The position numbers and the translations under genes are program-made. From Candidatus Krumholzibacteriia bacterium (GTDB taxonomy: Bacteria; Krumholzibacteriota; Krumholzibacteriia; Krumholzibacteriales; Krumholzibacteriaceae), in contig CAWIIQ010000001.1 of the NCBI GenBank assembly GCA_963836185.1, positions 1,920,001 through 1,984,000 on the forward strand: a stretch of DNA of 64,000 nucleotides. The letters run 5' to 3'. Below are positions 21,843 through 38,437 of this stretch, piece after piece. The notes below the pieces were generated by a model that was not told the origin of the DNA, ran no database searches, and saw nothing but the letters and a program-made list of their open reading frames with translations. How positions within the stretch are numbered: the stretch's first letter is position 1; each line of letters starts with the position of its first letter.

Positions 21843-23400
21843 ATGAAGATATCTGGTGAAAAAGAGCAGAAATATATCAGGGCCCAGCTCGACAGGCTTT
21901 TTCGAAGCGAGGATTTCAAGGCATCAGAGAAGCAGAAGAGCTTCCTCCGCTTTATCGCCGAGGAAGCGCTCGAGGGGAGAGGTTCTCAGCTCAAGGGATT
22001 CACCATCGCGGTCGAGGTCTACGGCAGGAATGAGAGATTTGATCCCAGGACTGATCCGATCGTGCGCGTGGAGGCGGGAAGGCTTCGACGCGCCCTGGAG
22101 CTTTACTATCTGAAAGAAGGCAGAAATGATCCCCTGCGGATCAGGATTCCCAAGGGAGGATACGCGCCTGTTTTCGAGCCGATCGAAGTGAAGACGGCCA
22201 CCGGAGCATCGATCGCAGTTCTGCCATTCGTCGACCTGACAGGAGAAAAGGGACAGGAATACTTTACTAACGGCCTTACAGAAGAGCTGACAACTGAACT
22301 GGCTCGATACCAGAACCTCAAGGTCATCGCATCTCAGTCGACGATGCGCTTCAAGGACCGGGAAATGAATCCCGGTGAATTAGGCGTTGAACTCAACGTC
22401 AGATTCCTCCTTACGGGGAACGTCCGAAGAGACTCAAAAACGGTCAAGGTGTCAGTGCAGCTCCTCGATGCATCGGCAGGCGAACAGATCTGGGCGGAAA
22501 GCTACAGATGCGAATATACGGCCGCCGAACTGATAGGGATCCAGGAGGAGATCGCCCAGCAGGCCATCGGGGCAATCGCTGATCAGTGGGGATTGATCGA
22601 ACGCAGGCTGTCCAGGGAGGCCGCCAGGAAAGCTCCCTCAGAGCTCAATGCATATGAAGCCGTTCTACGATTCTACCACTACGAGACGGAATTGACCGTC
22701 GAGGCATTCGAGCAGGCCCTCGAAGCACTGACTTATGCAACGGAGATAGAGCCCGGCTACGGGCTTGCCTGGTCGATGCTCGGCCATCTGCATGCGGACA
22801 ACTACGCACTTGGATTCCGGGATATAGAAGACACCCTGGATAAGGCACTCAGTTACGCGAAGAAAGGTGTGGCGATTGCACCGGAAAATCAATTCGCGTG
22901 GGACGCGCTCTCCGTGGTCTATTTTCAACTCGGAGAAAAAAGGCGTTTTCTGGAAACGATTGAAAAATCCCTGAGCCTTAATCCCAACTCACCATATATA
23001 GTGGGTGTAACAGGCTGGCATTTGATGCTCTTTGGCGAGTGGGACCGCGGGCTTGAACTGCTGAGAAAAGGCATGAGGCTTAATCCCCTCTACCCCACCT
23101 GGTTTCACCTGGCTACCTCAATGGAATGCTATCGCCGAGGGGGATTTCGAGGGCGCTCTCGAAGAGGCTATGAGTTTTAATTTCCCGACCCTGTTCTGGG
23201 ATCCACTGCTGAGGGCAGCCGCCCTCGGGAAACTGGGAAAATACCATGAAGCCGGAACAGCAGCCGGGGAGCTGCTGCAGCTGGTTCCAGATTTGCGTGA
23301 AGCGCGCAGGGCGATGATAAATATCTACGTGAAGGCTGACGGGCTTGCCGATGAGGTATTGGCCGGCCTGCGGAAAGCCGGCCTGAAAGAACTTGCATAG
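21843..23400 (+). CDS. Putative regulator: N-terminal HTH-like domain, TolB-N-like domain and TPRs (frameshift near 23140)
   Basis: FDPRTDPIVRVEAGRLRRALELYY, RIPKGGYAP, SIAVLPFVDL...YFTNGLTEEL, TPR-like repeats; continues in the 23170..23400 frame. Confidence 0.85.
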
Positions 23401-23420
23401 TCCTCCCTCCTCTTCCGGGC

Positions 23421-24656
23421 CTACCCCCTCATCTCGGCGATCTTCCTTACGGCCTGCTCCTGCATATCCCTGGCCGCCTCGGCCGGGTCGAGCTTCCCTC
23501 CCATCACGGACTGGTAGTAGGGGCGCATCGCGTCCCAGATAGCCCGCATCTCTGGCACCACCGGCATCGGCTGCCCGTGCAGCGCCTGATCCATCGAACC
23601 CTTCAGGACAGGATCAGCGAGAAGGACCTCATCAACGGCGAGGCTGGAGAGCGCCGGAAGGATCTTCAGTTCGGAGGTGATCTCCCTCTGGACCGCTTCT
23701 CCTGTGAGATAGACGAGCAGTTCCTTTACAGCGGGGAGTTTCTCGTCCTTGACGTTGACGCTAATAGAGTAGCCCTTGCTCGATACCATAGGCGCGGGGT
23801 ACTTTCCCGTCTCCGAAATAATCGGTATCGCCATGACGCCTATGTCCATCCCCGCCTCGATGTATGCCTTGAGCGACCAGGGGCCGTTGATGATGAATGC
23901 CGCCTGGCCCTTCTTGAACATCGTGTCGCTGAGCTCATAGTTGCATTCCTTCGGGAGTATCTTGTGCCTGTTGCGAAGGTCGGCCATAAAGGCGAGCGCC
24001 CTCGCCATCGCCGGCGTGTCGAGCGTCGGAGCGTAATTCTTGTCCATCACCTTTCCATTGAATCCGCCCAGGAAAGGAACGAGCCAGAAGGGCTCGACCG
24101 AGTTGAAAACAACGCCGTATATCTCCGGCATCCCGTCTCCGTTCTCGTCTACAGTGAGGCCCTTACACATCTTTATCCACTCATCGCTGTCTCTCGGCTC
24201 CGACTTGACCATCGCTTTGTTGTATATCAGCATGAGGTGGTTGCCGATCTGGTCGGGCACCGCGTAGTTGTGTCCCTCCAGGACACCGAGCGATGACTTC
24301 TCATACGCGCCAAAGAAAGCCGAGTCGAATATCTTTTCGAGTGGCATGATGAGCTGCATCACCGAGTACGGCCCGATCTTGTCGCTCGGCCCGTACACGA
24401 GGTCGGGGCCGCCGCCCGCGAGGGTGGCCGTCTGGAACTGGCTGTGAAGAAGGTCGGTCTCGAAATGTACCGTCGAGACTGTAACACCGGGATGGCTCGC
24501 CATGTAGGCATCGAGCTGCCTGTTGAGGACGACCTGCTCGACAGGGTCCTTCTGTTCCCATATGACGATCTCGTTGGTTCCGTCTCCCCCTCCCCCACAT
24601 CCGGAGAGGACGAGAAACAGGGATGCAAGCGCGAGCGCTGAGATTTTCCTGAACAT
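23421..24656 (-). CDS. malE: Maltose/maltodextrin-binding lipoprotein, MalE-like
   Basis: Lipobox LSGC, GGGPDL, LIYNK, INGPW, PMPVVPEMRAIW; GGAGG RBS. Confidence 0.85.
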   Translation of the reverse strand: MFRKISALALASLFLVLSGCGGGGDGTNEIVIWEQKDPVEQVVLNRQLDAYMASHPGVTVSTVHFETDLLHSQFQTATLAGGGPDLVYGPSDKIGPYSVMQLIMPLEKIFDSAFFGAYEKSSLGVLEGHNYAVPDQIGNHLMLIYNKAMVKSEPRDSDEWIKMCKGLTVDENGDGMPEIYGVVFNSVEPFWLVPFLGGFNGKVMDKNYAPTLDTPAMARALAFMADLRNRHKILPKECNYELSDTMFKKGQAAFIINGPWSLKAYIEAGMDIGVMAIPIISETGKYPAPMVSSKGYSISVNVKDEKLPAVKELLVYLTGEAVQREITSELKILPALSSLAVDEVLLADPVLKGSMDQALHGQPMPVVPEMRAIWDAMRPYYQSVMGGKLDPAEAARDMQEQAVRKIAEMRG

Positions 24657-24667
24657 GAACGACCTCC

Positions 24668-25841
24668 TCAGTCCTTGAGTACTACATATTGCGAGAGATC
24701 GAGCTGCAGGTTCCTCTCGATCTCGCCAGCGGTTTCAGGTCCGGTCTCCGTGAAAGACAAAGGAGAAGACGCGGTAAGTTGCGCCAGTCAGTTTTGCGGA
24801 GCTCGATCACCTTATCGAAGTTGGCCGCGAAGCCTTCGTAATCTATTTCCTCTACATCTTCGACGGGAACATCCTCGGGGATGAAGGCAACATACATCGA
24901 GTAGACCCTGTCTTCCTTCCCGGCGAATATCGTATTCCAGTCAGGTATCTTTCTCTCGAGAAAATACTCATGAGTGTTGATGCCCCATGCGTACCAGCCG
25001 AAATCGGTCCCGCCGAATCCGGCGAACCTCATCGGGTTGGCCTCTATCGGAACGATATCGCAGCCGTCCACCCTCAACTCGATATGAAGGGGAAAATTCT
25101 TCAGGTCGGCCTGCTTCCCGATTCGGGCAAGCGGGCCGGTGAACATCCGTATCCCGTACTCGACGATAGCTTTCGAGGTGACATATGTCGTATCGCTCAC
25201 ATCTGTCCCCGATGAGAAGAGATGGTGAAGGACATTGAGTATAACCGGGCGGCCTGTCTCATCGTAATATACGTCTACCGCGAACTCCTCGCCCTTTATC
25301 CCTTCCTCGATGATGAAGGTGCCCGGATCGAATACCTGTCCGGGATACATCCCCCCGAAACTCTCGAGATCCTCCTCGATCGACTTGCAGGGCGGCGGGC
25401 CAGTCTTCGTCAGATTCTATCTTTCGGACGGCCATGCTGAAGAATCCAACCGCCGGCTTTACGACAAACGGCTTGGGGAGCTCTGACGGGTCGAGATGCC
25501 TGAGCGCCTCGACGTCGATACCGGCGTAGAAGAACTCCGGATGGTCCTCCTCGATCATAGCGCGGAAATCGATCTTGTTCTTCAGCCGGTCGATCCTGTA
25601 GGGAAGTCCGGAAGGCCCGAGGTTTTCGGCGATCCATCCGATCGCGTCCTCCGAGCTGGTATAGATCAGAGGATACTTCTCGCGCGTTCGCCCTGGCGGC
25701 GAACTCCTCCCCGTCGAGGAGTGCGAGGTCGTATTCCTCGGCGACCTTTTCGGAGACGGCGTTTCGCAGCACCGGCGTCCTGAGGCGCTGGAGTGTTTCG
25801 GCGAGAAGATCGGATACGTACGGCCTGTCGAGTATTATCAT
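24668..25841 (-). CDS. ATP-grasp domain protein (at least three frameshifts)
   Basis: KPFVVKPAVGFFS, FIIEEGIKGEEFAVD, HIELRVD...PIEANPMRFAG; reconstructed C-terminus ...LDLSQYVVLKD* ends just before the malE RBS. Confidence 0.8.
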
Positions 25842-26575
25842 TACTTCTTATGCTCCCTGGGGAGCCTTCCGACAGGCATCACGTAGAGAGGCACTTCCTC
25901 TTCGGTCATCCCGATCAGTTTCTTGAGGGCATCGTCGGAGAAGGCGCCGATCGCGCAGGTGCCGAGCCCGAGGGAGCCGCACTGCAGATAGACGTTCTGC
26001 GCCGAGTGGCCGAGGTCCATACAGACATATCTGTCATGCCCGCGCTCCCCGTACTTCTCCGTGCATCTCTCGTAGACGGCGGACCAGACGATCGATACTG
26101 GAGCTTCGCCGGCGAACGGCTGGCTAAGGCAGGCCGCCATCAGGTCGCTTCGGATATCGCCATCGGCGAGCCTGTGGATCAGATGACCCTCAGGTACGTA
26201 CCAGTATATCCCCGGCAGGAGCCCTTTTACGTTTCCCGCTACCAGATATATCTCGAGCGGGTAACGCGCGCCGGCTGAGGGTGCGGTCTTGAACCCGCCG
26301 CGTATGAAATCGGGAAGCCCTTCCTTCGTGTAGGTGATCCCGTAGGCGGACCAGAGAAGTTGTGAGACTTCCTCCAGCGTAACGGGCTCATCGGTATATT
26401 TCCTTACCGACCTGCGCTCATGGAGGACCTTTTCTATCGAGAAATCACTGCTCAAGAGAGGCTTGGGCAGTTCGACTGTCGCAATAGCCTGGTGCTCGAG
26501 AGTGTACTTGCCGCTCCATGCCGTCGTGGGCATCAGGATACAGGCGGCGAGAACGAGGATAGTCAGATATCTCAT
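25841..26575 (-). CDS. SagB/ThcOx-family nitroreductase-fold dehydrogenase with N-terminal signal peptide
   Basis: RRSVRKY, KTAPSAGARYPLEIY, KYGERG, DLGHSAQNVYLQ, GTCAIGAF. Confidence 0.92.
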   Translation of the reverse strand: MRYLTILVLAACILMPTTAWSGKYTLEHQAIATVELPKPLLSSDFSIEKVLHERRSVRKYTDEPVTLEEVSQLLWSAYGITYTKEGLPDFIRGGFKTAPSAGARYPLEIYLVAGNVKGLLPGIYWYVPEGHLIHRLADGDIRSDLMAACLSQPFAGEAPVSIVWSAVYERCTEKYGERGHDRYVCMDLGHSAQNVYLQCGSLGLGTCAIGAFSDDALKKLIGMTEEEVPLYVMPVGRLPREHKK

Positions 26576-26615
26576 CGGGGTCTCCTTTCACATGCAGAAA
26601 AACATGGAAAGGAGA

Positions 26616-26828
26616 CTAACCGTTATCGGGGATATATTCAAGTATATCCCCCGGCTGACAGTCCAGGGCCCTGCAGACAGCTTCGAGTGTCGAGAACCGG
26701 ACGGCCCTGGCCCGTCCTGTCTTGAGGACGGAGAGATTCGCGATCGTCACTCCCACCTCGGATGACAGTTCCGTAAGGGACATCTTCCGTCTGACGAGCA
26801 TCATGTCGAGATTAACGTTGATTGCCAT
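26616..26828 (-). CDS. Cro/C1-type HTH regulator (YozG-like)
   Basis: NLSVLKTGRARAVRFSTLEAVCRALDCQPGDILEY. Confidence 0.95.
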   Translation of the reverse strand: MAINVNLDMMLVRRKMSLTELSSEVGVTIANLSVLKTGRARAVRFSTLEAVCRALDCQPGDILEYIPDNG

Positions 26829-26839
26829 GACACCCTCCC

Positions 26840-27487
26840 TCAGACGGTAAGTTCGCTGTCTTCACACAGGCTCACGCCGTACTGGAATACGTGCCCGATT
26901 ACTACGATAACAAGACCGGCGAATATATAGAATACCCGGAAGTCGGGCTCGATATAGATCTTCGCCCCTTCGATCCCTATCTTCGGCAGCCACATCCACG
27001 CGTAGATGTACTCGAGAATGCCCCAGAAAGGACCGGCCGCCATCACGAGCCAGCCCATCGCCCTTATCCTCGCGGCGTTCACCCGTGTAAAGGGTGTACC
27101 GCTCTTTATAGACTTGATGATCTTCCTGAGGATCATCACTATCCCGAGAAAAAGCATCGAGAGGAGCAGCGGCATTATGACGAAGATCCTCTGCAACCCC
27201 TTCTCGCCGTTCTCCATGACGAGCCGGCTGTACCCGGTGATCTTCGAGCTGGTGATCGAAAGGTCCTGTCCCTGCAGCCAGCCTCCTCCACCGGCGATGT
27301 AGCATACTTCAACCGGGGCACGCGTATACTTCACATGGAATGGAGTGAAGTTCACAGCGATCACGAGAACGACCGAGAGAAGCATCGCGAGAACGGCGAG
27401 CCAGAAGAGGATCTCGACTACTACCACCGATACCTTCGTCGCCGCGGAGGGCTTGAATCCCTGTACCGTCATGACGGCTCCTTTCAT
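26840..27487 (-). CDS. DUF2975 membrane protein
   Basis: 4 TM, PFTRVNAARIR, C-terminal FQYGVSLCEDSELTV; canonical partner of YozG-type HTH genes. Confidence 0.9.
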   Translation of the reverse strand: MKGAVMTVQGFKPSAATKVSVVVVEILFWLAVLAMLLSVVLVIAVNFTPFHVKYTRAPVEVCYIAGGGGWLQGQDLSITSSKITGYSRLVMENGEKGLQRIFVIMPLLLSMLFLGIVMILRKIIKSIKSGTPFTRVNAARIRAMGWLVMAAGPFWGILEYIYAWMWLPKIGIEGAKIYIEPDFRVFYIFAGLVIVVIGHVFQYGVSLCEDSELTV

Positions 27488-27527
27488 TTAGAATCCTGTT
27501 CCGTATACGGGTAGAATGAACATAATG

Positions 27528-27588
27528 TTGCCGTTTTTCAAGCAATTTTTATTGTTTTACGATAATTTATTACCGTATTACGAGGTAA
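27528..27588. promoter_or_regulatory. Three imperfect palindromes at 21-bp spacing, putative operator array
   Basis: TTGCCGTTTTTCAAGCAA (27528), TTATTGTTTTACGATAA (27549), TTACCGTATTACGAGGTAA (27570), upstream of the DUF2975-HTH pair. Confidence 0.55.
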
Positions 27589-27638
27589 GAGCGAAGTCCG
27601 CTTGCATCAGATCACGAATGCAGTTAACATCTTCAGCC

Positions 27639-28043
27639 ATGCGGAGAACGTTCAGAAGAGATATAGGATCGCTCGATGCGCTATTCGCGTTCGCGGAAGA
27701 GTTCGAGACCTGCAACGGCCTCGAGGATCCCGAATCTTACTTCCTCGACCTGACGCTCGAAGAGCTCTTCACAAACCTCGTGCGTCACGCCAACGGAAGC
27801 GAGAATATCGATGTCGAGATAGAACTCGATGACGGCCTTATAACGATCCGCCTTACCGACCGCGAGACCGGACCGTTCGATGGAAACTCGCTCGGCGAAG
27901 TCGACACTGAAGCTCCGCTGATGGAACGCGAGCCGGGCGGGCTCGGCATCCATCTCGTAAAAAAGATGGCGGACAGCCTGGAATACGACTACGATGACGG
28001 CACCCTGGTCATCACGGTAAAGAAGCGCCTGGAGGAAAGATGA
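27639..28043 (+). CDS. Anti-sigma/Ser kinase, RsbW-like (HATPase_c_2)
   Basis: LTLEELFTNLVRHA, LTDRETGPFD, REPGGLGIHLVKKMAD. Confidence 0.92.
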   Translation: MRRTFRRDIGSLDALFAFAEEFETCNGLEDPESYFLDLTLEELFTNLVRHANGSENIDVEIELDDGLITIRLTDRETGPFDGNSLGEVDTEAPLMEREPGGLGIHLVKKMADSLEYDYDDGTLVITVKKRLEER

Positions 28044-28327
28044 CGTTCGACATATCGGTAGCGGGAGATGGAACGATAAGACTCGCCGGAAGGCTCGACT
28101 CGAACCAGGTCGATACGACCAGGACCGTCCTCGAAAAGGTCGAAACGACGGTAAAGGTAGATTTCGCGGAGCTGCGATATATCTCCAGCGCCGGCCTCGG
28201 CCTCCTTCTCGGCACCCAGAAACGCCTCATCGACAAAGGTCACAAGCTTGAGATCATCAACATGACTTCTCACATCCGCGATATCTTCACCATCGCCGGA
28301 TTCGACTTTATATTTGACATAAAGTAA
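28040..28327 (+). CDS. STAS anti-anti-sigma factor (RsbV-like)
   Basis: LAGRLDS, DFAELRYISSAGLG with the phosphorylatable Ser, IFTIAGF; ATGA overlap. Confidence 0.95.
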   Translation: MTFDISVAGDGTIRLAGRLDSNQVDTTRTVLEKVETTVKVDFAELRYISSAGLGLLLGTQKRLIDKGHKLEIINMTSHIRDIFTIAGFDFIFDIK

Positions 28328-28422
28328 AAGTTATTTTACTCTGATTCACAAGCTCTCTAACACAAGGGATTTACAACAACACCTGCAGCACGAGCGTGAC
28401 GGCTGTGGCACGGTCCGGTATT

Positions 28423-28485
28423 CCGGTATCGTCCTCCGTCACCGGCCATCGAAGTGCGCCGGACGGAGGACGTTTTCCATACCGG
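28423..28485 (+). terminator. Long stem-loop between the STAS and ECF genes, possible terminator
   Basis: CGTCCTCCGTC (28430-28440) pairs with GACGGAGGACG (28462-28472), followed by TTTT; CCGGTAT/ATACCGG can extend the stem. Confidence 0.5.
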
Positions 28486-28488
28486 CCG

Positions 28489-28517
28489 CCAACTTTTTCA
28501 TGGTTGGTCTGTATTTA
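28489..28517 (+). promoter_or_regulatory. Putative autoregulatory ECF promoter, copy 1
   Basis: CCAACTTT-N12-CTGTATTTA; the last A is the first base of the ECF start codon. Identical arms and spacing at 29805. Confidence 0.75.
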
Positions 28518-29047
28518 TGTCGACAACGGATTCATCGCTGGTCAACGAGACGCTGAATGGAGACAGGGAAGCGTTCGGAAGGCTGGTGGAGAAGTACGAG
28601 CGGCGGATCTTCAACCTCGCGTTAAGGATCTGCGGCGACTACGAGGAAGCCATGGACGTAACACAGACAGTATTTGTAAAGGCCTTCGACAGGCTGGAGA
28701 CCTTCGATCCTTCGAGGAAGTTCTTCAGCTGGCTCTACAGGATGGGCGTCAACGAATCCCTCAATCAGGTCAAAAGACAGAGCAGGATAGTGCACGTCGA
28801 ATTCGACCCTCCCTCCCGCACTCCGGGACCGGAGCAGCAGCTGATCCGTGAGGAGTCGAACGGGCTCGTGCAGACGGCGCTCAAGAGACTCAGCGAGGAC
28901 CAGAGGGTGGTCATCATCCTCAGGCACTTCGTCGATCTCTCGTACAGCCAGATAGCCGAAGTGCTGGGGATCCATGAGAAGACTGTGAAGTCCAGGCTTT
29001 ACTCAGCCAGGCAGCGGATGAAGGAATTACTTACAGGGGCGGTGTAG
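28517..29047 (+). CDS. ECF RNA polymerase sigma factor (SigW/RpoE-like)
   Basis: DSSLV...GDREAFGRLVEKY, DVTQTVFVKAF, FFSWLYRM, LSYSQIAEVLGIHEKTVKSRLYSAR. Confidence 0.95.
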   Translation: MSTTDSSLVNETLNGDREAFGRLVEKYERRIFNLALRICGDYEEAMDVTQTVFVKAFDRLETFDPSRKFFSWLYRMGVNESLNQVKRQSRIVHVEFDPPSRTPGPEQQLIREESNGLVQTALKRLSEDQRVVIILRHFVDLSYSQIAEVLGIHEKTVKSRLYSARQRMKELLTGAV

Positions 29048-29050
29048 GTC

Positions 29051-29788
29051 ATGACCATAGATGAAAGATACATAAGGATGATGAACGAGGAGATCGACGG
29101 TGTCATCTCCGATGAGGACGCTGAGAGACTCGCTTCATATGTCAGCTCCGATCCGGAGGCCGGGAGATACTACAAGGAGCTTCGGGCGACGGTCGAGGCT
29201 ATCGACGGCACGAGAGATGTCGAGCCACCCTCCGAACTCAGGGAACGGATCTTCAGTTCGGTATACGAACGCTCCCTGGAAGAGGCAGTGGCCCGCCCCC
29301 CCGAAAGAAACGTTTTCTGGCGGTCGTTCGTGCCGGTCTTCGCTGCCGGCGTAGCGGCAGGATTCATACTCTTCGCCGCGATACGGCAGCTGCCGGACCG
29401 GGCACCGGATGAACCTGGATACGGAGCGACTATCGGAGCGGCTTCCGGAGAAGATGAGACCACAGGAAGATTCGACGCTTTCGGGGTGAAGGGCAGCATA
29501 ACCCCCGTATTCGAGAGCGGTTCTGCGACTATCACATTAGACCTGGCTTCAGAGGCGGATGCCAGCATCCTCCTCGAGTTCGAGGATGGAACATCCTTCG
29601 AGTCGATCAGGTCGAGCGAGGGAACTGCCTACCAGATGGAGGTCGATGAAAAGAGCCTCCTGCTCGTACATAACGGCATCGCGGAATATATCGTCAGACT
29701 CAGATCGGCGGGATCCACGTCTTTCGTGCTGCGGATCTTCACCGATGGCAAGACTGTGGCGGCGACGAAATATTCCGCCGGAGAATAA
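29051..29788 (+). CDS. Transmembrane anti-sigma factor
   Basis: Cytoplasmic ASD-like N-terminus (EIDGVISDED...EPPSELRERI), one TM (FVPVFAAGVAAGFILFAAI), periplasmic beta-rich domain. Confidence 0.85.
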   Translation: MTIDERYIRMMNEEIDGVISDEDAERLASYVSSDPEAGRYYKELRATVEAIDGTRDVEPPSELRERIFSSVYERSLEEAVARPPERNVFWRSFVPVFAAGVAAGFILFAAIRQLPDRAPDEPGYGATIGAASGEDETTGRFDAFGVKGSITPVFESGSATITLDLASEADASILLEFEDGTSFESIRSSEGTAYQMEVDEKSLLLVHNGIAEYIVRLRSAGSTSFVLRIFTDGKTVAATKYSAGE

Positions 29789-29804
29789 AAACAGGCTGAT
29801 CTGA

Positions 29805-29833
29805 CCAACTTTCGAAAGACCCGCCTGTATTTA
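29805..29833 (+). promoter_or_regulatory. Putative ECF promoter, copy 2, upstream of the repeat-protein gene
   Basis: CCAACTTT-N12-CTGTATTTA ending 58 nt upstream of ATG 29891, which has an AAGGAGG RBS. Confidence 0.75.
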
Positions 29834-29890
29834 GGGTGAACAGTAAATCAGTCAGCGGCAGAAACCCATTTACCAGAAGGAGGGCACCAG

Positions 29891-31858
29891 ATGACCAGGA
29901 ACAAGGTTCTACTGGTGGTTGTCCTGATCGCGATCGCAGTGGTCGCCTACTTCGCCTTCTTCCATCCTCCCACAGGCCGTGAAGGCGCCGAAGGGACGAT
30001 AGGAGTGGTGGAAAAGCACCGTGACCAGCAGATGAGCGACGAGGACGTAGTACTGAATTTCGAGGGGGATTACGAGTCGGAATACACTATCGACAATATC
30101 ATCTCCCCTGAGGAAATGGCTGCTCTGTTCGAGCGCACTAATATGCAGGAAAAGGCCAATCTCATGCAGAGGGTCTCGATCCAGCAGAAGGCGGAGCTGG
30201 CCGATCTCGTCCCGACGCAGGAACGCGTCTCTATGGTCGAGCGCGCCACTCCGATGGAACGTGTCTCCATGTTCCAGCGTTTCTCGATCCAGGATCGAAC
30301 CAGCATCATGAAGAGACTGTCGATGACCATGGAAGCGTTCAACAAGCTGCCCATGCAGGAAAAATCAGCTCTCATGATGGAAAAGTTCTCTGTCCAGGAG
30401 AAATCCTCCCTGATGCAGACGGCTACCATCCAGGAGAAGGCCGCCATCATGGAGAGGCTCTCCATCCAGAAAAGGGCCGATATCATGATGCGCGCCTCGA
30501 TCCAGCAGAAGGCCGCGATATTCAACCGCACCTCGATCCAGGAGCGCCTCGACATCATGGAGCGCTGCTCGATCCAGCAGAAGGCATCGATATTCAATCG
30601 TGCCTCGAGTGCTGAGCAGGCCTCGATGTTCGAGAAAGCTACATTCATGGAGAAGGCGGCGATATTCAATCGCACCAACGTCCAGGAGCGCATGAGATCA
30701 TGAACAGGCTTTCCGTTCAGGACCGGACCTCCCTGATGAAGAGATCGTCGATCACGATGGAAGCCTTCGACAAGCTCCCGGCGCAGGAGAAGTCCGCCGT
30801 CATGATGGAGAAGTTCTCGATCCAGGAGAAGGCCCAGTTGATGGACAGGTTCTCGATCCAGGAGAAGGCCAACATAATGCAGAGAGCCTCTGTCACGGAA
30901 CGCGCGAATATCATGCAGCGCGCCTCGATCACGGAGAGAGCCTCTATCATGCAGAGGACCAGCATCATGGGCAGGACCTCTTTCACCTTCGAGCGGGCCT
31001 CGGTCCATGGAACGCGCCGATATAATGCAGCGCGCATCGGTCACGGAAAAAGCGGCGATCTTCGATCATGCCACGGTCCAGGAACGTATGGAGCTCATGA
31101 GCAGGCTTTCCGTTCAGGATCGGACCTCGCTGATGAAGAAATCATCGATAACGATGGAAGCCTTCGACAAGCTCCCGATGCAGGAAAAATTCTCGGTCAT
31201 GAACAAGTTCTCGGTACAGGAGAAGGCCGCCATGATGGAGAAGTTCTCGGTACAGGAAAAATCCAGCATCATGGAGCGCACCTCGATCCAGATGAGAACC
31301 TCGCTGATGGAACGCGCGTCGATCCAGCAGAAAGCCTCGATCATGGAGAGGGTCAATATCCAGGAGCGGGCGTTTGTCTTCCAGAGGGCCTCGGTCATGG
31401 AGAAGGCGAACGTGTTCGCCAGGGCCACTGCCCAGGAGCAGGTCGACATGTTCGCTCGCTGCTGCATGCAGGAAAAGGCCGCGATATTCAACCGCACCTC
31501 GGTACAGGAGCGCACCGAACTTATGCAGCGCCTCTCTGTCCAGGACCGCACTTCGGTACTCAACCGGGCCGCGATCACGATGGAAGCCTTTGAAAAGCTC
31601 CCGATGCAGGAGAAGGCCGCCGTCATGATGGAGAAGTTCTCGGTACAGGAGAAGGCCCAGCTGATGGACAGGTTCTCGGTACAGGAGAGAGTCAGCATAA
31701 TGGGGCGTGCATCAGTCATGGAGAAGGCCTCGATATTCAACAGGGCCTCGATCACCGAGAAAGCCAGCATCATGGGACGCTTCTCGGTGCAGGAAAGAGC
31801 CTCTGTATTCAACAGGGCCTCGGTCATGGAGAGGTCGTCGATAAGCAGGGAAATCTAG
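29891..31858 (+). CDS. Membrane-anchored or exported Met-rich tandem-repeat protein (~655 aa; compensating frameshifts near 30694 and 31005)
   Basis: N-terminal TM, short unique segment (GAEGTIGVVEKHRDQQMSDEDVVL), then ~45 units of consensus R(A/F)S(I/V)QEKAxI(M/F)x. The three track ORFs join into one if a G is added at ATG[G]AGATC and a C removed at GTC[C]ATG. Confidence 0.85.
30115..31850 (+). repeat. Coding tandem repeat, 36-bp unit, nested in four ~400-430-bp higher-order blocks
   Basis: Recurring TC(G/T)(A/G)TCCAGGAGAAGGCC-type words; block marker ATGGAAGC (MEAF) at 30329, 30757, 31154 and 31580. Confidence 0.9.
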
Positions 31859-31904
31859 GGGTCCCTCGCACTTTTGATATGAAGCGGAAGAGGGGATGAG
31901 TGGT

Positions 31905-31945
31905 AGGAAGGAGCAGCCCGGCACCGACCGGGCTGCCTCCTTCCT
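31905..31945 (+). terminator. Strong stem-loop between the repeat gene and the surface peptidase gene
   Basis: AGGAAGGA-GCAGCCCGG / CCGGGCTGC-C-TCCTTCCT; no adjacent U-tract. Confidence 0.6.
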
Positions 31946-31970
31946 GCCGCGTTTCAGTCAAAGGAAGGAT

Positions 31971-34900
31971 ATGAGAGGTTTCAAATCGACCGCCGGCCTG
32001 CTTTCCCGCTCGATTCCCGTCCTCATCGCCGCCGCGGCGGTCTTTCTCGTTCCGCAGCGGGTATCGGGCCAGGACGAATATGTACAGTCAAAGCCTTACC
32101 AGCTCAAATACAGGGCCTACGAGACAGAGGACCTCAGGATCTTCTACTTTTATCGCGAGCAGGAGTATGTCATAGAGCACGTGGCTCGCTGCTTCGAGAA
32201 CGCGTTCCGGTATCACCAGAAGTTCTTCGATTACACGCCGAGTGGCGAGGTCACGGTCTATTTCAATGACGACGATGACTACGGATACGCCGGCACCACT
32301 GTCATCCCGAACAACTGGATCACCCTCGGCATCGAGCCGTTCGAGTATGTATACGACACATGCCCGACTAACGAGCGGATGAACTGGGTGATGAACCACG
32401 AGCTCGTCCACGTCACCGCCTCCGACCAGGCTACCGGGTGGGACTCGAGGTTCAGGAAGCTCTTCTTCGGAAAGGTCCACCCTGTCGCGGAGGATCCCGT
32501 CTCTATATTCTACGCATACCTCACTACGCCCCGACTCTACTCTCCGCGCTGGTACCATGAGGGTATCGCAGTATTCATGGAGACATGGATGGCAGGCGGT
32601 ATCGGACGATCGCTGACTGGTTACGACGAGATGACCTTCAGGGCGATGGTCCGCGACAGCATGCAGTTCCATACCGTCGTCGGACTCGAATCGGAAGGGA
32701 CGGCGAAGGATTTCCAGATCGGCCAGGTGTCGTATCTCTACGGCACGAGGTTCTTCAGTTATCTCTCACTTATGCACGGTCCGGAATCCGTCATCGAATG
32801 GGTGCGCCGCAACGAGGGAAGCGGCGCCTATTTTTCGACACAGTTCCGGAATGTCTACGGCGCCTCGATCTACGAGAAATGGGACGAATGGATAGAATTC
32901 GAGAAGGAGTGGCAGACGACCAACCTCGACGATTCTATCCGGCAGTATCCCGTCACTCCTTCCAGGCAACTCTGTGAGCGGCCTCTCGGCTCGGTATCGA
33001 GGGAGTTCTTCGATCCCGGAGAAACGAAAACTGTACACAGCGGTAAACTATCCCGGCGAGTTCTCCCACATCGCCGAGATAGATATCGATTCGGGAAAGA
33101 TGCGCAAGATCTGCGAGATAGAGACCCCGGCCCTCTACTACGTCACCGGACTCGCCCACGACCCGGAGAGCGGCACTCTCTTCTTCACCACCGATAACAG
33201 CAGGGGCTTCCGCGACGTTAACTCGGTCGATATAGAGACAGGGAAGACGAAGTCGCTCTGCAAGGATATCCGAACCGGCGACCTCGTCTACTGCCGGGCC
33301 GATTCGACGCTCTGGGGCATCATGCACAATGAGGGATTCTCCAGCATCGTGATGTTCGTTCCTCCCATACAATGACGGATACGAGCTCATCAAGCTCAGG
33401 TACGGGATCGACCTGTTCGATATCGATATCTCGCCGGACGGCAAGTATCTGACCGGCACGATGACAGACATAAGCGGCCGGCAGAGGCTCATCAGGATGG
33501 AGACGGAAAGACTGATGTTCGGGGACGGTACCTGGGAGCTGATCCACGAGTTCGCGGACAATAACGCGGCCAATTTCGTTCACTCGCCCGACGGGCGGTA
33601 CCTTTACGGGACATCGTACGTGACCGGCGTATCGAATATATTCAGGTTCGATCTCGAGCAGTGGAAGCTCGAGGCGATGAGCAACTTCGAGATCGGGGGC
33701 TTCCGCCCCCTTCCCGTATCGGACGATTCGCTGATAACATTCACTTACACCGGGAGAAGGCTTCGAGCCTGTGATGATACCGGTAAAACCGATCGAGGAC
33801 GTTGCAGTCGATAAGGTATCTCGGCCAGGCGGTCATACTGGAGCACCCCGTCCTCGACGGACTGGAAGCTCTCGTCGCCGAAGCAGATCGAGATCGACTC
33901 AATGATGACATACGAGGGCGAGTACAGCCCGACAAAGAACCTGCGGGTGACCTCCCTCTACCCGATCGTCGAGGGGTACAAGGAATACGGTACGATCGGG
34001 CTGCGGTTCAACATGATGGACCCGGTCGGGATAAACGCTCTCGACATGGCCGCCTCATACACACCGAACACGAACCTGCCGGAGAACGAACGGGCCCACT
34101 TCAGGTTCAAGTTCTCGAGGGGCACGATGGGGGGCGACAGGGTATTACAACCGCGCCGACTTCTACGACCTCTTCGGCCCGACGAAGGTGAGCAGGAAGG
34201 GACATTCGCTCGCCCTCGATTACGACTACGGATTCGTCGTCGACAGGCCGAAGAGGCTCGGCCTGAACGTCCGCGCCGCCGCCTACGGCAACCTCGAGTA
34301 TCTCCCCCACTACCAGAACGTGCAGGCGACGATAAAGGATTTCTACACTCTCGAGGGGTCCCTCCACTTCAGGCACACAAGGGGAACGATCGGCGGGATA
34401 CAGGCGGAGAAGGGGATGCTCTTCTCCCTGAACAGTTATAACTCCCTGGTCAACGGCGACCTCTACCCCCTCTTCTACGGGCACCCTGGATTACGGTGTC
34501 CTGCTTCCATGGGACCATTCGTCGATATGGCTCAGGACATCGGGCGGCTTCTCCTTTGGAGACAGGGATGAATCGAACTCGTACTTCTTCTTCGGGGGAT
34601 TCGGGAACAACTGGGTCGACCACAAGAGGGTCAACAGGTACAGGGAGTTTTACGCCTTCCCCGGCGTCGAGCTCAACGAGATCGGCGGCACGAACTTCCT
34701 CAAGGGGATGGTCGAATGGACGCTGCCGCCCCTGAGGTTCTCCTCCTTCGGAAAGCCGTCGCTCTATGCCAACTGGGCGAGCCTCGCCTTCTTCGGATCG
34801 GTCATCGCGACCAATGTCGATGCCGGACTACGAAGGGGTCGAGGTGGCAAATGCGGGCACACAGCTGAACCTGAAGATCGTATTCTTCTCGTCGCTGCAG

Positions 34901-34991
34901 ACGACCTTCTCGGCCGGTTACGCTTTCGCTTTCGAGGAGGGCCGTAGCGCCGAGAGAAGAGTTGATGCTGTCCTTGAAGATATTGAGATAA
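31971..34991 (+). CDS. Large exported protein (~1000 aa): zincin-like HExxH domain, TolB-like beta-propeller and putative C-terminal beta-barrel (many frameshifts)
   Basis: Signal peptide; NHELVHV...PRWYHEGIAV gluzincin-like motif; DISPDGKYL and HSPDGRYLY propeller blades; C-terminal strands FFFGGFGNNWVD, VEWTLPPLRF, ending ...ELMLSLKILR*. Confidence 0.75.
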
Positions 34992-35010
34992 ACAGAAGGG
35001 GTATTGTGAG

Positions 35011-36111
35011 TTGAACTACCTACTGGCCATCCTCCCCGTCCTCGTCTTCCTCCTCGTCCTCAAGGCGATGGATTCGTTCAAGCTCGTCAGTTTCCGGCAT
35101 GTCGCGGCAAGCCTCGCGGCCGGATTCGCCGCGGCTGTCGCCGCCTTCTTCATCACGAAGCAGCTCATGCCGGCACTCGGTCTCTCCATATACTCCCCGA
35201 TATACTCGAGATATATCGCTCCCGATGCTCGAGGAGGCGCTTAAAGGGGCCTGGATCATCTGGCTGCTCTGACGAGGCGCAGGACAGGATTCATGGTCGA
35301 CACGGCGATACACGGCTTCGCGATAGGTGCCGGGTTCGCAATCGTCGAGAACGTATACTATCTCAATAATATGACAGGGTACGGTATAGCCTTCGGCATA
35401 GTCCGCGGATTCGGACCGGCCCTGATGCACGGCACCTCGACAGCGATCTTCGGGGTCCTCGCGAAGACAGCCTCCGAGCTGCGCGGCTCGGTATCCACCG
35501 CGACGGTGCTTCCCCGCCTTCCTGATAGCCGTTCTGATACATTCGCTGTTCAATCACTTCTTCATCTCCCCCCTGGTCTCGGCCCTGGCCCTGCTCATCG
35601 GCGTCCCGCTGGTGATGACGCTTGTCTTCCAGCCAGAGCGAACGCTCACTGCGCAAGTGGCTCGGGATAGGCTTCGATTCCGACCAGCAGATGCTGGAGA
35701 TGATAACCTCCGGGCGATATCGCGAGCACACCGGTCGGCGAATACCTCATCTCGCTCAAGCGCACCTTCACCGGGGAGACGGTCGCCGACATGCTCTGCT
35801 GCCTCAGGCTGCATCTCGAGCTCTCTATCAGGGCCAAGGGTATCCTGCTGATGAGGGAGAACGGATTCGAGCCTCCTCCCGATCCGGATGTCGAGGAGAT
35901 GTTCAGGGAACTGAAATACCTCGAGGGCCGCATAGGGGTGACGGGCAAACTCGCGCTGCACCCGCTGCTGCGCTGGAGCAGCCGCGATCTCTGGCAGCTT
36001 CACATGCTGTCGGGATTCATGCCGGGGAAGCGACCTCTGATCCCCGAAAAGAGAAGGGCGACCGACTGGCGGCCGCCCTTTGATTCCAAATACTGGCTTA
36101 GCAGGCTCTAG
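35011..36111 (+). CDS. PrsW-family intramembrane glutamic protease with soluble C-terminal extension (several frameshifts)
   Basis: Reconstructed motifs APMLEEALKG, GFAIGAGFAIVENVYY, ALMHGT, LIHSLFNHF. True stop may be near 36040, before the hairpin. Confidence 0.85.
36047..36081. terminator. Hairpin between the convergent PrsW-family and histone genes
   Basis: AAGGGCG(A)CCG / CGG(C)CGCCCTT stem with TTT on the + side and TCTCTTTTC on the - side. Confidence 0.6.
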
Positions 36112-36285
36112 AAATCGAACGGGTAGATGGTCTTGCGCTTGTTGCCCTTCGCCCTCTCGGCGGCGGCCTTTGACCATCTCGGCGATCTGAGCGTTAAGAG
36201 CCTCAGCCGCGTCTCCACTCATCCTGAGACCATGCTTCTTGGCCAGATCCTTGATCCTCGAGGCGTAAACGAAAGTCTCTGCCAT
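36108..36285 (-). CDS. Bacterial histone-fold protein, 58 aa (one extra base near 36170)
   Basis: Removing one base at GTC-AAA-G gives MAETFVYASRIKDLAKKHGLRMSGDAAEALNAQIAEMVKAAAERAKGNKRKTIYPFDF*; RKTxxxxD histone clamp, R(M)S loop, AAGGAGG RBS, downstream hairpin. Confidence 0.85.
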
Positions 36286-36386
36286 CTTATCCCTCCTTCT
36301 TTCTGTCGTTTGACAGGCTTAGAGACGAGTTGCTTACCTTTTTACCTGAACGGTAGCCTAAACTGCTTCCATTTGCCTTGTCAACG

Positions 36387-37085
36387 TCAATTGTCACTTT
36401 TTTTAAGGATTATTCTAGCATCGGCGATGACGCATCTTTCCTCCGTACAAAGCACCGGATTGAGATCTATCGATTCAATCTCGTCTGTCATCTCGACGAG
36501 CAGGCTCGAAAAACCGACGACCAGTTCTTTCAGCCTGGCGATATTGACACCGGCCGCTCCGCGGAAGCCGCGCAAGTACGCTCCCCGCCTTTAACTCGTC
36601 TATCATCGACTCGACGATTATCTTCAGTGACAGGCGCCATCCTTATCGCTGTATCCTTGTAGATCTCTACGCCGACACCGCCCATACCGGCCAGCACCAC
36701 AGCTCCGAACTGCTCATCGATCTTTCCGCCGACGATGACCTCTATCCCGGAGAGCATCTCCTCGACGAGGATCCCCTCGAATCCTTCGATCCCGCTGAAC
36801 CGGCCGGCGACCTCCCGCATCGCTTCGGGACCGTCTATACCGACGGCTACGCCCCCGGCAGTCGGACTTGTGGATGACATCGGGCGAAACGATCTTCGCC
36901 ACGACGGGCCAGCCGATCCGTCCGCCCGCCTCGACCGCCTCCTCTTCAGTCCTTACCCATTCGAACCGGGGTACGTCGAAGCCGGCTTCGGCGAAGAGGC
37001 GCTTCGCCTCCGGCTCGAGGACCCAGCCATGTTTCTTCGATTCGTTGAGTATGGCGGCAGCAGTTTCGCTCAGCATGGCTTGCAC
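36387..37085 (-). CDS. ADP-forming acyl-CoA synthetase beta (ATP-grasp) subunit (frameshifts near 36860 and 36590)
   Basis: VLEPEAKRLF, PVVAKIVSPDVIHKSD, GILVEEM, GMGGVGVEIYKD, SIDLNPV...IADARI. Confidence 0.88.
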
Positions 37086-38437
37086 CTCTTCATCGCCTCG
37101 ACCATCAGGACCGCTCCTTCGATCGAGTGGGAAACTGGAACATTGTTGAGCTGGAAGCCCTCTATGATCATCCTGTATTTCTCTACGTGCGGCACGTAAG
37201 CCACGATCGGTTTACCCTCCTCCTGGTATACCTGGCTGAGCCTCGCCCCCACATCGGAGGTGACCTCGGGGATATATGGCAGGAGAAGCATGATAACGCA
37301 GTCGATGTCGTCAAGCCTGCTCAGCTCACCGGCCGCTATCACAAAATCGTCATCCCGGGCGCTGCCGGTGAGATCTATCGGATTGCCAAGCGAGGCGATA
37401 GGCTGGACGCTCTCTGAGAGACGTCCGCGTATCCTGCTCTGCACCTCTTCGGAGAACTCCGGAACGATGAGGCCCGAAGCCTCGCAGGTATCGACGGCGA
37501 CGGCGCCGTGTCCCCCGCTCGCCGTCACTATCCCGACTCTGCCCTCGATCCCCCTCGGGTAGCAGCTCAGCGATTCACAGAAGGAGACCATCTCGTACTC
37601 GTCCTTCGCCTCGACGATCCCGAACTGGCTCATCACGGAGGAAAATACGTGTAGTCACCCGCGATCGAGGCGGTATGGCTCGATACCGCCCGGCTGCCGG
37701 CCTGGCTCTTGCCGGCCTTCATGATTATGACCGGTTTCGGGCTTCTGCTCGCAGCCAGGACGAACTCCCGTCCCTCACCGGGGCCGAATCCTTCGACATA
37801 GAAAGCGATGACATCCGTCTTCTCGTCCCTCGCGAAGTACTTGAGCAGTTCGAGTTCTCCAACAGCCGCCTTGTTCCCGATACTGACCGCCCTGGAGAGC
37901 CCTATCCCCTGTCCCGCGAATTTCACCATCTGGTCGACGAGTATCCCGCCGCTCTGGCTGACGATGGCTACGTTACCCGCCTCGGGCCTTACCATCCTCT
38001 CGCTCGGCAGGAAAGAGAGAATCGACCAGCCCGGAAGAATATATCCCGAGACAGTTGGGGCCTATTATGGGGAAATCGGCCTCCGCGGCGATCTCTTCGA
38101 ACTGCTGCCGCAGGTCGAGCCTGCCCGTCTCGGCGAATCCTCCCGATATCACGGCTGCCCCGCCGACCCATGCGTCGATGCATTCCCTCAGAACGCCCGG
38201 TACATGCTCGGCCCTCACAGCGATGATAGCCAGGTCGATCTTCTCCGGGATCTCGGAGATCGAGGTGTATATCTTTTCCTTGTGGTACATCCCGCCCTTC
38301 GGATTCACTCCGAAGACCTTCACCGGGTAGCGGAAGAAGTTTTTATTATAGATGATATTGGCGGGGTGTCGCTCATTGCTCAGCGACAGTCCGACAACAG
38401 CCATCGTCTTCGGCTCGAACAGGGTCCTGAAATCCAA
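37070..38437 (-). CDS. ADP-forming acyl-CoA synthetase alpha (CoA-binding) subunit (frameshifts near 38010 and 37640)
   Basis: ISGGFAETG, IIGPNCLG, VSQSGG, SIGNKA, phospho-His motif SSHTASIAG, NPIDLTG. Confidence 0.9.

Follow-up and report, generated by a model that had tools for sequence, protein, structure and literature searches.

A conserved leader and exchangeable repeats in a protein encoded with an ECF sigma factor and two putative envelope proteases

Here we describe a gene cassette centred on a repeat protein, which we call X (29891..31858, + strand), in a 64,000-nucleotide stretch of a Candidatus Krumholzibacteriia genome (the window). Its five genes stand in the order ECF sigma factor, anti-sigma factor, X, BIG (our name for the envelope protein encoded next downstream of X) and PrsW. 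Sequence comparison brings out, besides the cassette itself, a conserved leader at the N-terminus of X, a motif common to X and the anti-sigma factor, promoter-like sites, intact catalytic motifs in BIG and PrsW, and fusions of the anti-sigma domain with X. We tentatively favour a model in which PrsW releases X, BIG captures and exports it, and the anti-sigma factor reports the same cut.

An earlier note on this DNA had read X as a single gene interrupted by two indels, and this reading holds: the coordinates are correct, and three pieces in frames 0, 2 and 0 join and stay open through 655 codons. Both frameshifts, near 30695-30699 and near 31006, are assembly errors. At the first, the frame is restored in a contig of run X1 that carries one base more (net +1) and otherwise differs by a single letter in 323; at the second, the extra base is absent from a second haplotype, contig C5, of the same assembly. 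Genes around X are broken likewise, BIG by about six breaks, and frameshifts are frequent throughout window positions 24600-37100 (an ATP-grasp gene, BIG, PrsW and part of an acyl-CoA synthetase), which resembles an unpolished long-read assembly. Contig C5 (L040) corresponds to window positions 23400-34990 and is about 90% identical overall and fully identical over about 27000-29500, a pattern attributable either to assembly collapse or to recent recombination. Block 2 of its X has a different variant of the insert; its divergence from the window is 17% in the X repeats and 14% in BIG, so that X is not specially divergent between the haplotypes. The concern that the array might be an assembly expansion, raised in the same note, was also checked: since intact X genes of 651-654 aa occur in six relatives (G002, G003, G004, G005, G017 and G024), it is not. 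Contigs from RNA libraries cover parts of X in runs X1 and X2 (one study) and X4 (another); because these runs were selected by the X gene itself, with shares of 0.10-0.18, and contigs cannot rank genes, we claim neither an expression level nor a habitat.

The internal architecture of X could likewise be reproduced. A predicted signal-anchor helix (about aa 6-24) and the conserved leader (29891..30055, +; alignments A1 and A3) include G-T-I-G at 29993-30004 and end in D-V-V-L. The repeats (30134..31858, +) form a region of 574 aa with about 44-45 twelve-residue units (~44.5) in four blocks; the QDRTS inserts near 30290, 30718, 31115 and 31541 recur at the 143-, 132- and 142-codon spacing first noted, and the composition is as described, with 56 Met, 3 Gly and neither Trp nor Tyr. 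Identity at lag 12 reaches 0.35, against 0.077 +/- 0.011 (maximum 0.11) in 1000 shuffles, and an identity of 0.27 at lag 6 indicates that each twelve-residue unit is built of two half-units. The feature is thus real, and its interest lies in the system to which it belongs, not in its methionine. The earlier note had not recognised the cassette, nor the promoter motif, nor the sequence motif common to X and the anti-sigma factor.

A comparison of homologues, proposed earlier as a check, came out positive: the N-terminal segment is conserved and the repeats vary. A search of 1.84 billion representatives returned 171 matches to X at E 0.001 or better, and the leader is present in 112 of the 150 representative matches listed, as a hydrophobic helix followed by P-P-x(5-6)-G-T-I-G-x-V-x-K-Y-R-x-x-Q-I-x-x-x-D-V-x-L. 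Beyond it, the sequence changes completely from member to member, and the C-termini share nothing across the family. Complete members (92) range from 228 to 1128 aa, with 12 (32 members) and 9 (18) as the commonest repeat periods and weak periodicity in 24. When 40 of these 92, chosen for diversity, were scanned with Pfam, 12 matched MgtE_N, 7 STI1/HOP-DP, 1 a decapeptide repeat and 1 collagen, while 11 had nothing at E 1e-5; no terminal enzyme or toxin domain was found in the 40. Loci L162, L073 and L190 illustrate collagen-like, decapeptide-like or STI1-like cargo behind the same leader. On a tree of PrsW from 73 loci, a quick tree whose deep branches are weak, the well-supported branches imply that the 12-mer class changed at least 5 times and the 9-mer class at least 4 times, which indicates that the cargo of X has repeatedly been replaced by other elongated repeat types. 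Two other searches gave nothing further: a word-index search for homologs among longer proteins had 0 matches among 4114 candidates, a weak result superseded by the representative search, and an Atlas search with the N-terminus of X returned no usable match. Outside the cassette, L079 and L104 are orphan second leader genes that retain a promoter-like site. In G007, a membrane-anchored MgtE_N-like repeat protein lies near purA with neither leader nor cassette (L033:8408-10678), and a fragment in G022 (L039) resembles it.

In the lineage of the window, X is conserved. Insert spacings of 142, 130-131 and 142 codons and lengths of 651-654 aa are maintained at 52-85% identity across three genera (six genomes; the second spacing in G003 was left unresolved by the pattern), dN/dS in the repeats is 0.10-0.22, a sign of purifying selection, and the six-genome comparison showed no sign of diversifying selection there. 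The earlier suggestion of an MgtE-N/FliG-type helical rod is supported as a fold by Pfam, by a helical model and by structural matches: MgtE_N (PF03448) scores 94 bits for the G003 ortholog, against a cut-off of 25.9, and 40 and 50 bits for the window pieces. A single-sequence model of a 399-aa relative (L035; mean pLDDT 59.8, with two segments at 83-91) has one helix and turn per 12 residues, and in structural comparison it comes closest to MgtE N domains and FliG (Z 6.3-7.9; rmsd 2.4-4.8 over 60-106 residues). Such Z values are weak for helical repeats and lie in the range of common helical arrangements; Foldseek with the model of the relative found no match at E 0.001 or better. X is predicted to be a helical solenoid. 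Sub-cut-off matches to LpxD, LpxA and YdcK had raised a hexapeptide left-handed beta-helix as a candidate; this is less likely in view of the helical model of the relative and because relatives carry Pro at 26% of first-turn positions together with S/T-x-x-E caps. The likeness to the MgtE-N/FliG superhelix thus consists of the 12-residue helix-turn repeat, the Pfam score above cut-off and the best structural matches. Unlike MgtE, the full-length X ortholog matched neither a CBS pair nor the five-helix MgtE membrane domain in Pfam, X has one N-terminal hydrophobic segment only, and the repeat fills the protein; furthermore, other members of the X family use unrelated repeats.

The cassette is widely distributed. 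Of 208 genomes of the phylum, 69 have the leader and 69 the BIG peptidase domain; 66 have both, and kin are not independent in these counts. The closest named records belong to Candidatus Krumholzibacteriota, and the cassette is also found in several other diderm phyla. For scanning genome contigs by pattern we used the peptidase alignment, the leader alignment being too variable; the peptidase query has at least 582 matching stretches in species-representative genomes, mostly of uncultured phyla, and the best 80 of these include Eisenbacteria, Bacteroidota/Ignavibacteria, Acidobacteriota, Calditrichota, Gemmatimonadota, KSB1, Marinimicrobia and Aminicenantes. Among these best 80 loci, 59 of the 60 with at least 2.5 kb upstream have a leader gene upstream of BIG. 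Conversely, a leader gene lies immediately 5' of BIG in 36 of 40 loci selected by the leader, the other four being two orphans, one contig end and one genome that lacks BIG. X, BIG and PrsW stay together even where no sigma pair is adjacent (L131, L160 and L169).

The regulatory genes are of recognisable kinds. The ECF sigma factor (28517..29047, +; Pfam Sigma70_r2 and r4_2) probably starts at ATG 28517, where its orthologs start. The anti-sigma factor (29051..29788, +) has an N-terminal anti-sigma domain, recognised by NCBIfam (in the G003 ortholog at E 7.5e-11, below the cut-off), one membrane helix and a variable outer domain with a mean column identity of 25% (alignment A6). The PrsW-family intramembrane protease (35011..36033, +, frameshifted in the assembly) matches Pfam PrsW-protease (PF13367, 64 bits), with the motifs EE..K, F..E, H and H..N present and E74, E75, K78, E112, H139, H176 and N180 invariant in 71 sequences. 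Its score of 29 for the NCBIfam PrsW equivalog, where the cut-off is 225, indicates that it is not the equivalog of the Bacillus subtilis PrsW. At its C-terminus this PrsW subfamily has a further conserved domain (about 120 aa; window 35600-36033), with several invariant residues and no PDB match, which is possibly a regulatory or sigma/anti-sigma-binding part. Just 5' of the sigma gene, at 27516-28327, lie genes for an RsbW-like kinase and a STAS anti-anti-sigma factor. The pair is present in the window and in C5, the RsbW-like gene also in L036, and both are absent from L027; since some close relatives lack it next to the cassette, we leave the pair out of the cassette. None of the five cassette proteins matched a PADLOC anti-phage model.

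BIG (31971..34991, +, about 1000 aa, frameshifted in the assembly) combines a signal peptide, a zinc-peptidase domain, a TolB-like propeller and an Omp85-like C-terminal region. The HExxH..E peptidase motif reads HELVH at 32397 and WYHEG at 32550; H94, E95, H98 and E148 are invariant in 71 sequences, and the domain has 60% mean column identity. HExxH with a downstream Glu ligand agrees with the gluzincin/Peptidase MA features, and Peptidase_MA_2 matches 3 of 10 BIG members (best E 1.4e-4); a PDB sequence search gave nothing significant for either the peptidase domain or PrsW. The propeller is seen in a PD40 match of 23.3 bits (cut-off 20.9), in weak TolB matches in PDB and in Atlas clusters at 0.98-0.99. 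For the barrel region, Pfam Omp85_2 appears below cut-off in 3 of 3 BIG proteins (E 0.002-0.011), and Omp85 makes up 33% of one cluster of Atlas neighbours; a single-sequence fold of BIG, at pLDDT 32, was too low for use, and Pfam detected no POTRA domain. An Omp85-like barrel at the C-terminus is a weakly supported prediction. Barrels of the Omp85 family are known more for inserting proteins than for exporting them.

Regulation of X with the sigma gene is suggested by two ECF-type promoter-like sites, CCAAC-N17-GTA immediately 5' of the sigma gene (28488..28516, +) and another before X (29804..29832, +); the SigW consensus is of the same AAC..GTA type. When G000 was scanned with a matrix built from X sites alone, the former site scored 31.0, top of 929 AAC-N17-GTA sites, while the score of 26.8 before X is circular, the matrix having been trained on the X sites of relatives. 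AAC-N17-GTA occurs in 69 of 101 X upstream regions, whereas the best motif in a before-BIG control set reaches 18 of 95. By locus, a promoter-like site precedes X in 63 of the 83 that have a sigma pair alongside, and the sigma gene in 60 of 99 (sigma loci not de-duplicated), as against 0 of 93 for BIG and 0 of 87 for PrsW. In five relatives the exact pattern turned up 7 times in forward or reverse orientation, 6 of these at sigma or X; the reversed control also gave 7, so that the signal is one of position, not of count. The top-scoring sites in G000 belong to the sigma gene, X and one secreted protein of 1197 aa with a right-handed beta-helix and Chlam_PMP repeats (L200:409-3999; G000 C1:344908; site score 26.0), a candidate member of a regulon that seems minimal, with little beyond sigma and X. 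In 46 of 73 loci the ATG of the sigma gene lies 3 nt after the GTA of the site (window 28511-28519). Such spacing is short for an ECF -10 element; the message may be leaderless with unusual spacing, or the site may have another role. Scans for sigma-70 promoters and terminators stayed at chance level, and Rfam had 0 matches in 27000-37000. Between X and BIG, a long hairpin (31902..31948, +) may act as a terminator or stabilise the mRNA: the 102 nt that follow the X stop codon fold at -57.7 kcal/mol, and z is below -2 in 72 of 98 loci relative to mononucleotide shuffles. A strong hairpin there would be expected if X were made in excess over BIG.

What links the regulatory genes to X more closely is a motif behind the membrane helix. 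The anti-sigma factor of the window reads A-T-I-G-A at this place (29426..29440, +), a candidate protease site similar to the leader of X, where most relatives have G-T-hydrophobic. In sets de-duplicated by sequence, G[TAS][ILMV] follows within 30 aa of the membrane helix in 99 of 104 X proteins and 62 of 81 anti-sigma factors, where shuffling leads one to expect a mean of 10 and 13 (maximum 21 and 23); at chance level, 51 of 243 later 30-mers match. The strict motif is absent from 19 of the 81 anti-sigma factors, and that of the window itself has A-T-I-G, not G-T-I. Even so, the motif glycine is the only near-invariant outer column in 59 anti-sigma factors (alignment A6), and the X and anti-sigma profiles align at the motif with a probability of 58% (E 1e-4). 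Furthermore, 7 loci, which fall at about five places on the PrsW tree with its weak deep branches, encode an in-frame fusion of the anti-sigma domain with X, and every one of them has a word resembling a ribosome site ahead of the inner ATG; among leader-bearing representatives, the leader begins more than 60 aa in for 19 of 112. Fusions that keep the inner start suggest that the anchor of X is able to replace that of the anti-sigma factor. It is mainly the common motif and the fusions that suggest that both proteins may be cut by one protease. PrsW, the site-1 protease of RsiW (PMC10202637; PMC4183432), is the natural candidate. The residue two before the motif glycine is small or aliphatic (A, V, T or L), which would also fit signal peptidase, listed as a site-1 protease of other anti-sigma factors (PMC10202637, Table 1).

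Prediction of a three-chain complex of PrsW, BIG 1-585 and the leader gave a score of 0.34, as against 0.00 for the best of 3 controls, with contact agreement between runs of at least 51% and partner pLDDT of at least 51. For calibration, of 157 solved complexes 116 pass the mark for this score, as do 2 of 215 mismatched pairs; at 0.60 or under, the passes comprise only 18 of the 157 solved complexes and both mismatches. One control replaced BIG and kept PrsW and the leader; its score of 0.00 neither supports a contact between PrsW and the leader nor speaks against it. The prediction hints, weakly, that the leader binds BIG or the complex. As the leader adjoins the inner membrane, contact with an outer-membrane protein would need prior release.

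Our leading model, still tentative, would connect these observations as follows. The sigma factor would drive production of X, which is predicted to be anchored in the inner membrane as a helical rod. PrsW may cut X free at the G-T motif after the anchor, whereupon BIG in the outer membrane would catch the released protein through its conserved leader, trim it and export the rod, presumably through the barrel. The anti-sigma factor, with its similar motif, would compete for the same protease, and its own cut would switch on more X and so reset the supply. The purpose of X would then most likely be to form a polymer at the surface or in the matrix, with its shape counting for more than its sequence. 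The intact BIG peptidase could equally destroy X, and a rather unlikely but serious competitor builds on this: X would be released and degraded by BIG in the periplasm with nothing exported, the rod acting as bait or timer and the flux through PrsW and BIG reporting the state of the envelope to the sigma factor. The invariance of all four BIG zinc ligands, the minimal-looking regulon and the capacity of X to form the outer part of the anti-sigma factor itself are all in keeping with such a sensor, as is the combination of a peptidase with a propeller, which suggests processive breakdown. It would leave unexplained, however, both the barrel-like C-terminal region conserved together with the peptidase and the residue-exact length and register of X in three genera.

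The remaining readings go back to suggestions of the earlier note. Cleavage by BIG into repeat-sized peptides that exit via the barrel, as lineage-specific signals sensed by the anti-sigma factor in a quorum-like loop, we consider quite improbable. A multi-copy precursor of this kind would agree with the intact zinc-peptidase motifs of the neighbour, the conserved leader and variable repeats, the autoregulatory promoter-like sites, the variable anti-sigma outer domain and the K or R that recurs in most units. Yet the units within X are only 35% identical at lag 12, their copy number is constant in six genomes, the hydrophobic-core and helix-cap positions are kept, and across the family units of 6 to 34 aa have no common sequence despite the 60% conservation of the peptidase. 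In the lineage of the window, fixed length and register with purifying selection (dN/dS near 0.2) favour a folded rod over a precursor. A rod that stays uncut and spans the periplasm as a spacer or ruler is very unlikely: the part of this proposal that stands is the constant length and block spacing in three genera, along with the solenoid prediction, but lengths spread from 228 to 1128 aa in the family, the conserved part of X sits beside the membrane and not at a tip, the C-termini have nothing in common, and two proteases accompany the protein. Least credible of all is the oxidant or metal sink based on methionine, which the 56 Met in 574 aa of the window copy had suggested. Orthologs of the same architecture have 4.4-7.7% Met; across the family, the repeat region holds 0.4-12.5% with a median of 4%, reaching 8% or more in 4 of 92 members. 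Met interchanges with Ile, Leu and Phe at core positions, and we noticed no Msr gene in the cassette, looking without a profile search.

Several known systems share parts of this design. TpsA/TpsB and Fap/curli resemble X and BIG in their abundant repeat substrate, conserved N-terminal address and adjacent dedicated outer-membrane partner. In contrast to two-partner secretion (type Vb), Pfam finds no TPS domain in X and no POTRA in BIG; relative to both TpsA/TpsB and Fap/curli, the passenger is predicted to be helical, X has a signal anchor and PrsW in place of a plain signal peptide, and export is here a proposal. The regulatory half recalls sigma-W/RsiW/PrsW/RasP of Bacillus subtilis, with an ECF sigma factor, a membrane anti-sigma factor and a PrsW with intact motifs (PMC10202637; PMC4183432). 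The cassette differs in its diderm hosts, in the extra C-terminal domain of its PrsW, in the retention of PrsW with X and BIG at loci that lack a neighbouring sigma pair, in a second candidate substrate, X, that bears the motif of the anti-sigma factor, and in a very small apparent regulon. BIG resembles the WD40-Omp85 subfamily (Heinz and Lithgow 2014, PMC4104836), in which a TolB-like propeller likewise precedes an Omp85-like region, but adds the HExxH..E peptidase domain; the sections consulted of that survey describe no peptidase, partner gene or function for the subfamily, and its 'Metallo' subfamily is PF00149. PrsW has also been proposed as the releasing protease of an exported protein in PrsW-dependent polymorphic toxin export (Zhang et al. 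2012, PMC3482391). There PrsW is fused to the toxin, whereas that of the cassette is free-standing, and no toxin domain (40 X scanned) or immunity gene was seen with it. Full-text literature searches turned up no description of the cassette; subscription papers and the supplements of ECF classifications might mention the gene context. The regulatory half, then, resembles a known kind, and neither the X family nor its pairing with BIG had a known counterpart in the literature looked at.

With at least 582 matching stretches, mostly from uncultured phyla, the cassette is common, and its leader of about 60 aa, if it does accept any rod-like cargo, may be of use as a display tag. If the model is true, it would give the propeller-Omp85 subfamily its first function, provide PrsW proteases with a second kind of substrate and exemplify a feedback design in which the regulator mimics the cargo. 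A broader reading, which we put forward as doubtful but possible, is that the cassette represents a new class of diderm export: a short address behind a PrsW cut site would send sequence-agnostic rods (alpha-solenoid, STI1-like, collagen-like or decapeptide) through a peptidase-gated Omp85 barrel, and an anti-sigma factor that copies the cut site of the cargo would allow the cell to meter export and refill the cargo via a dedicated sigma factor.
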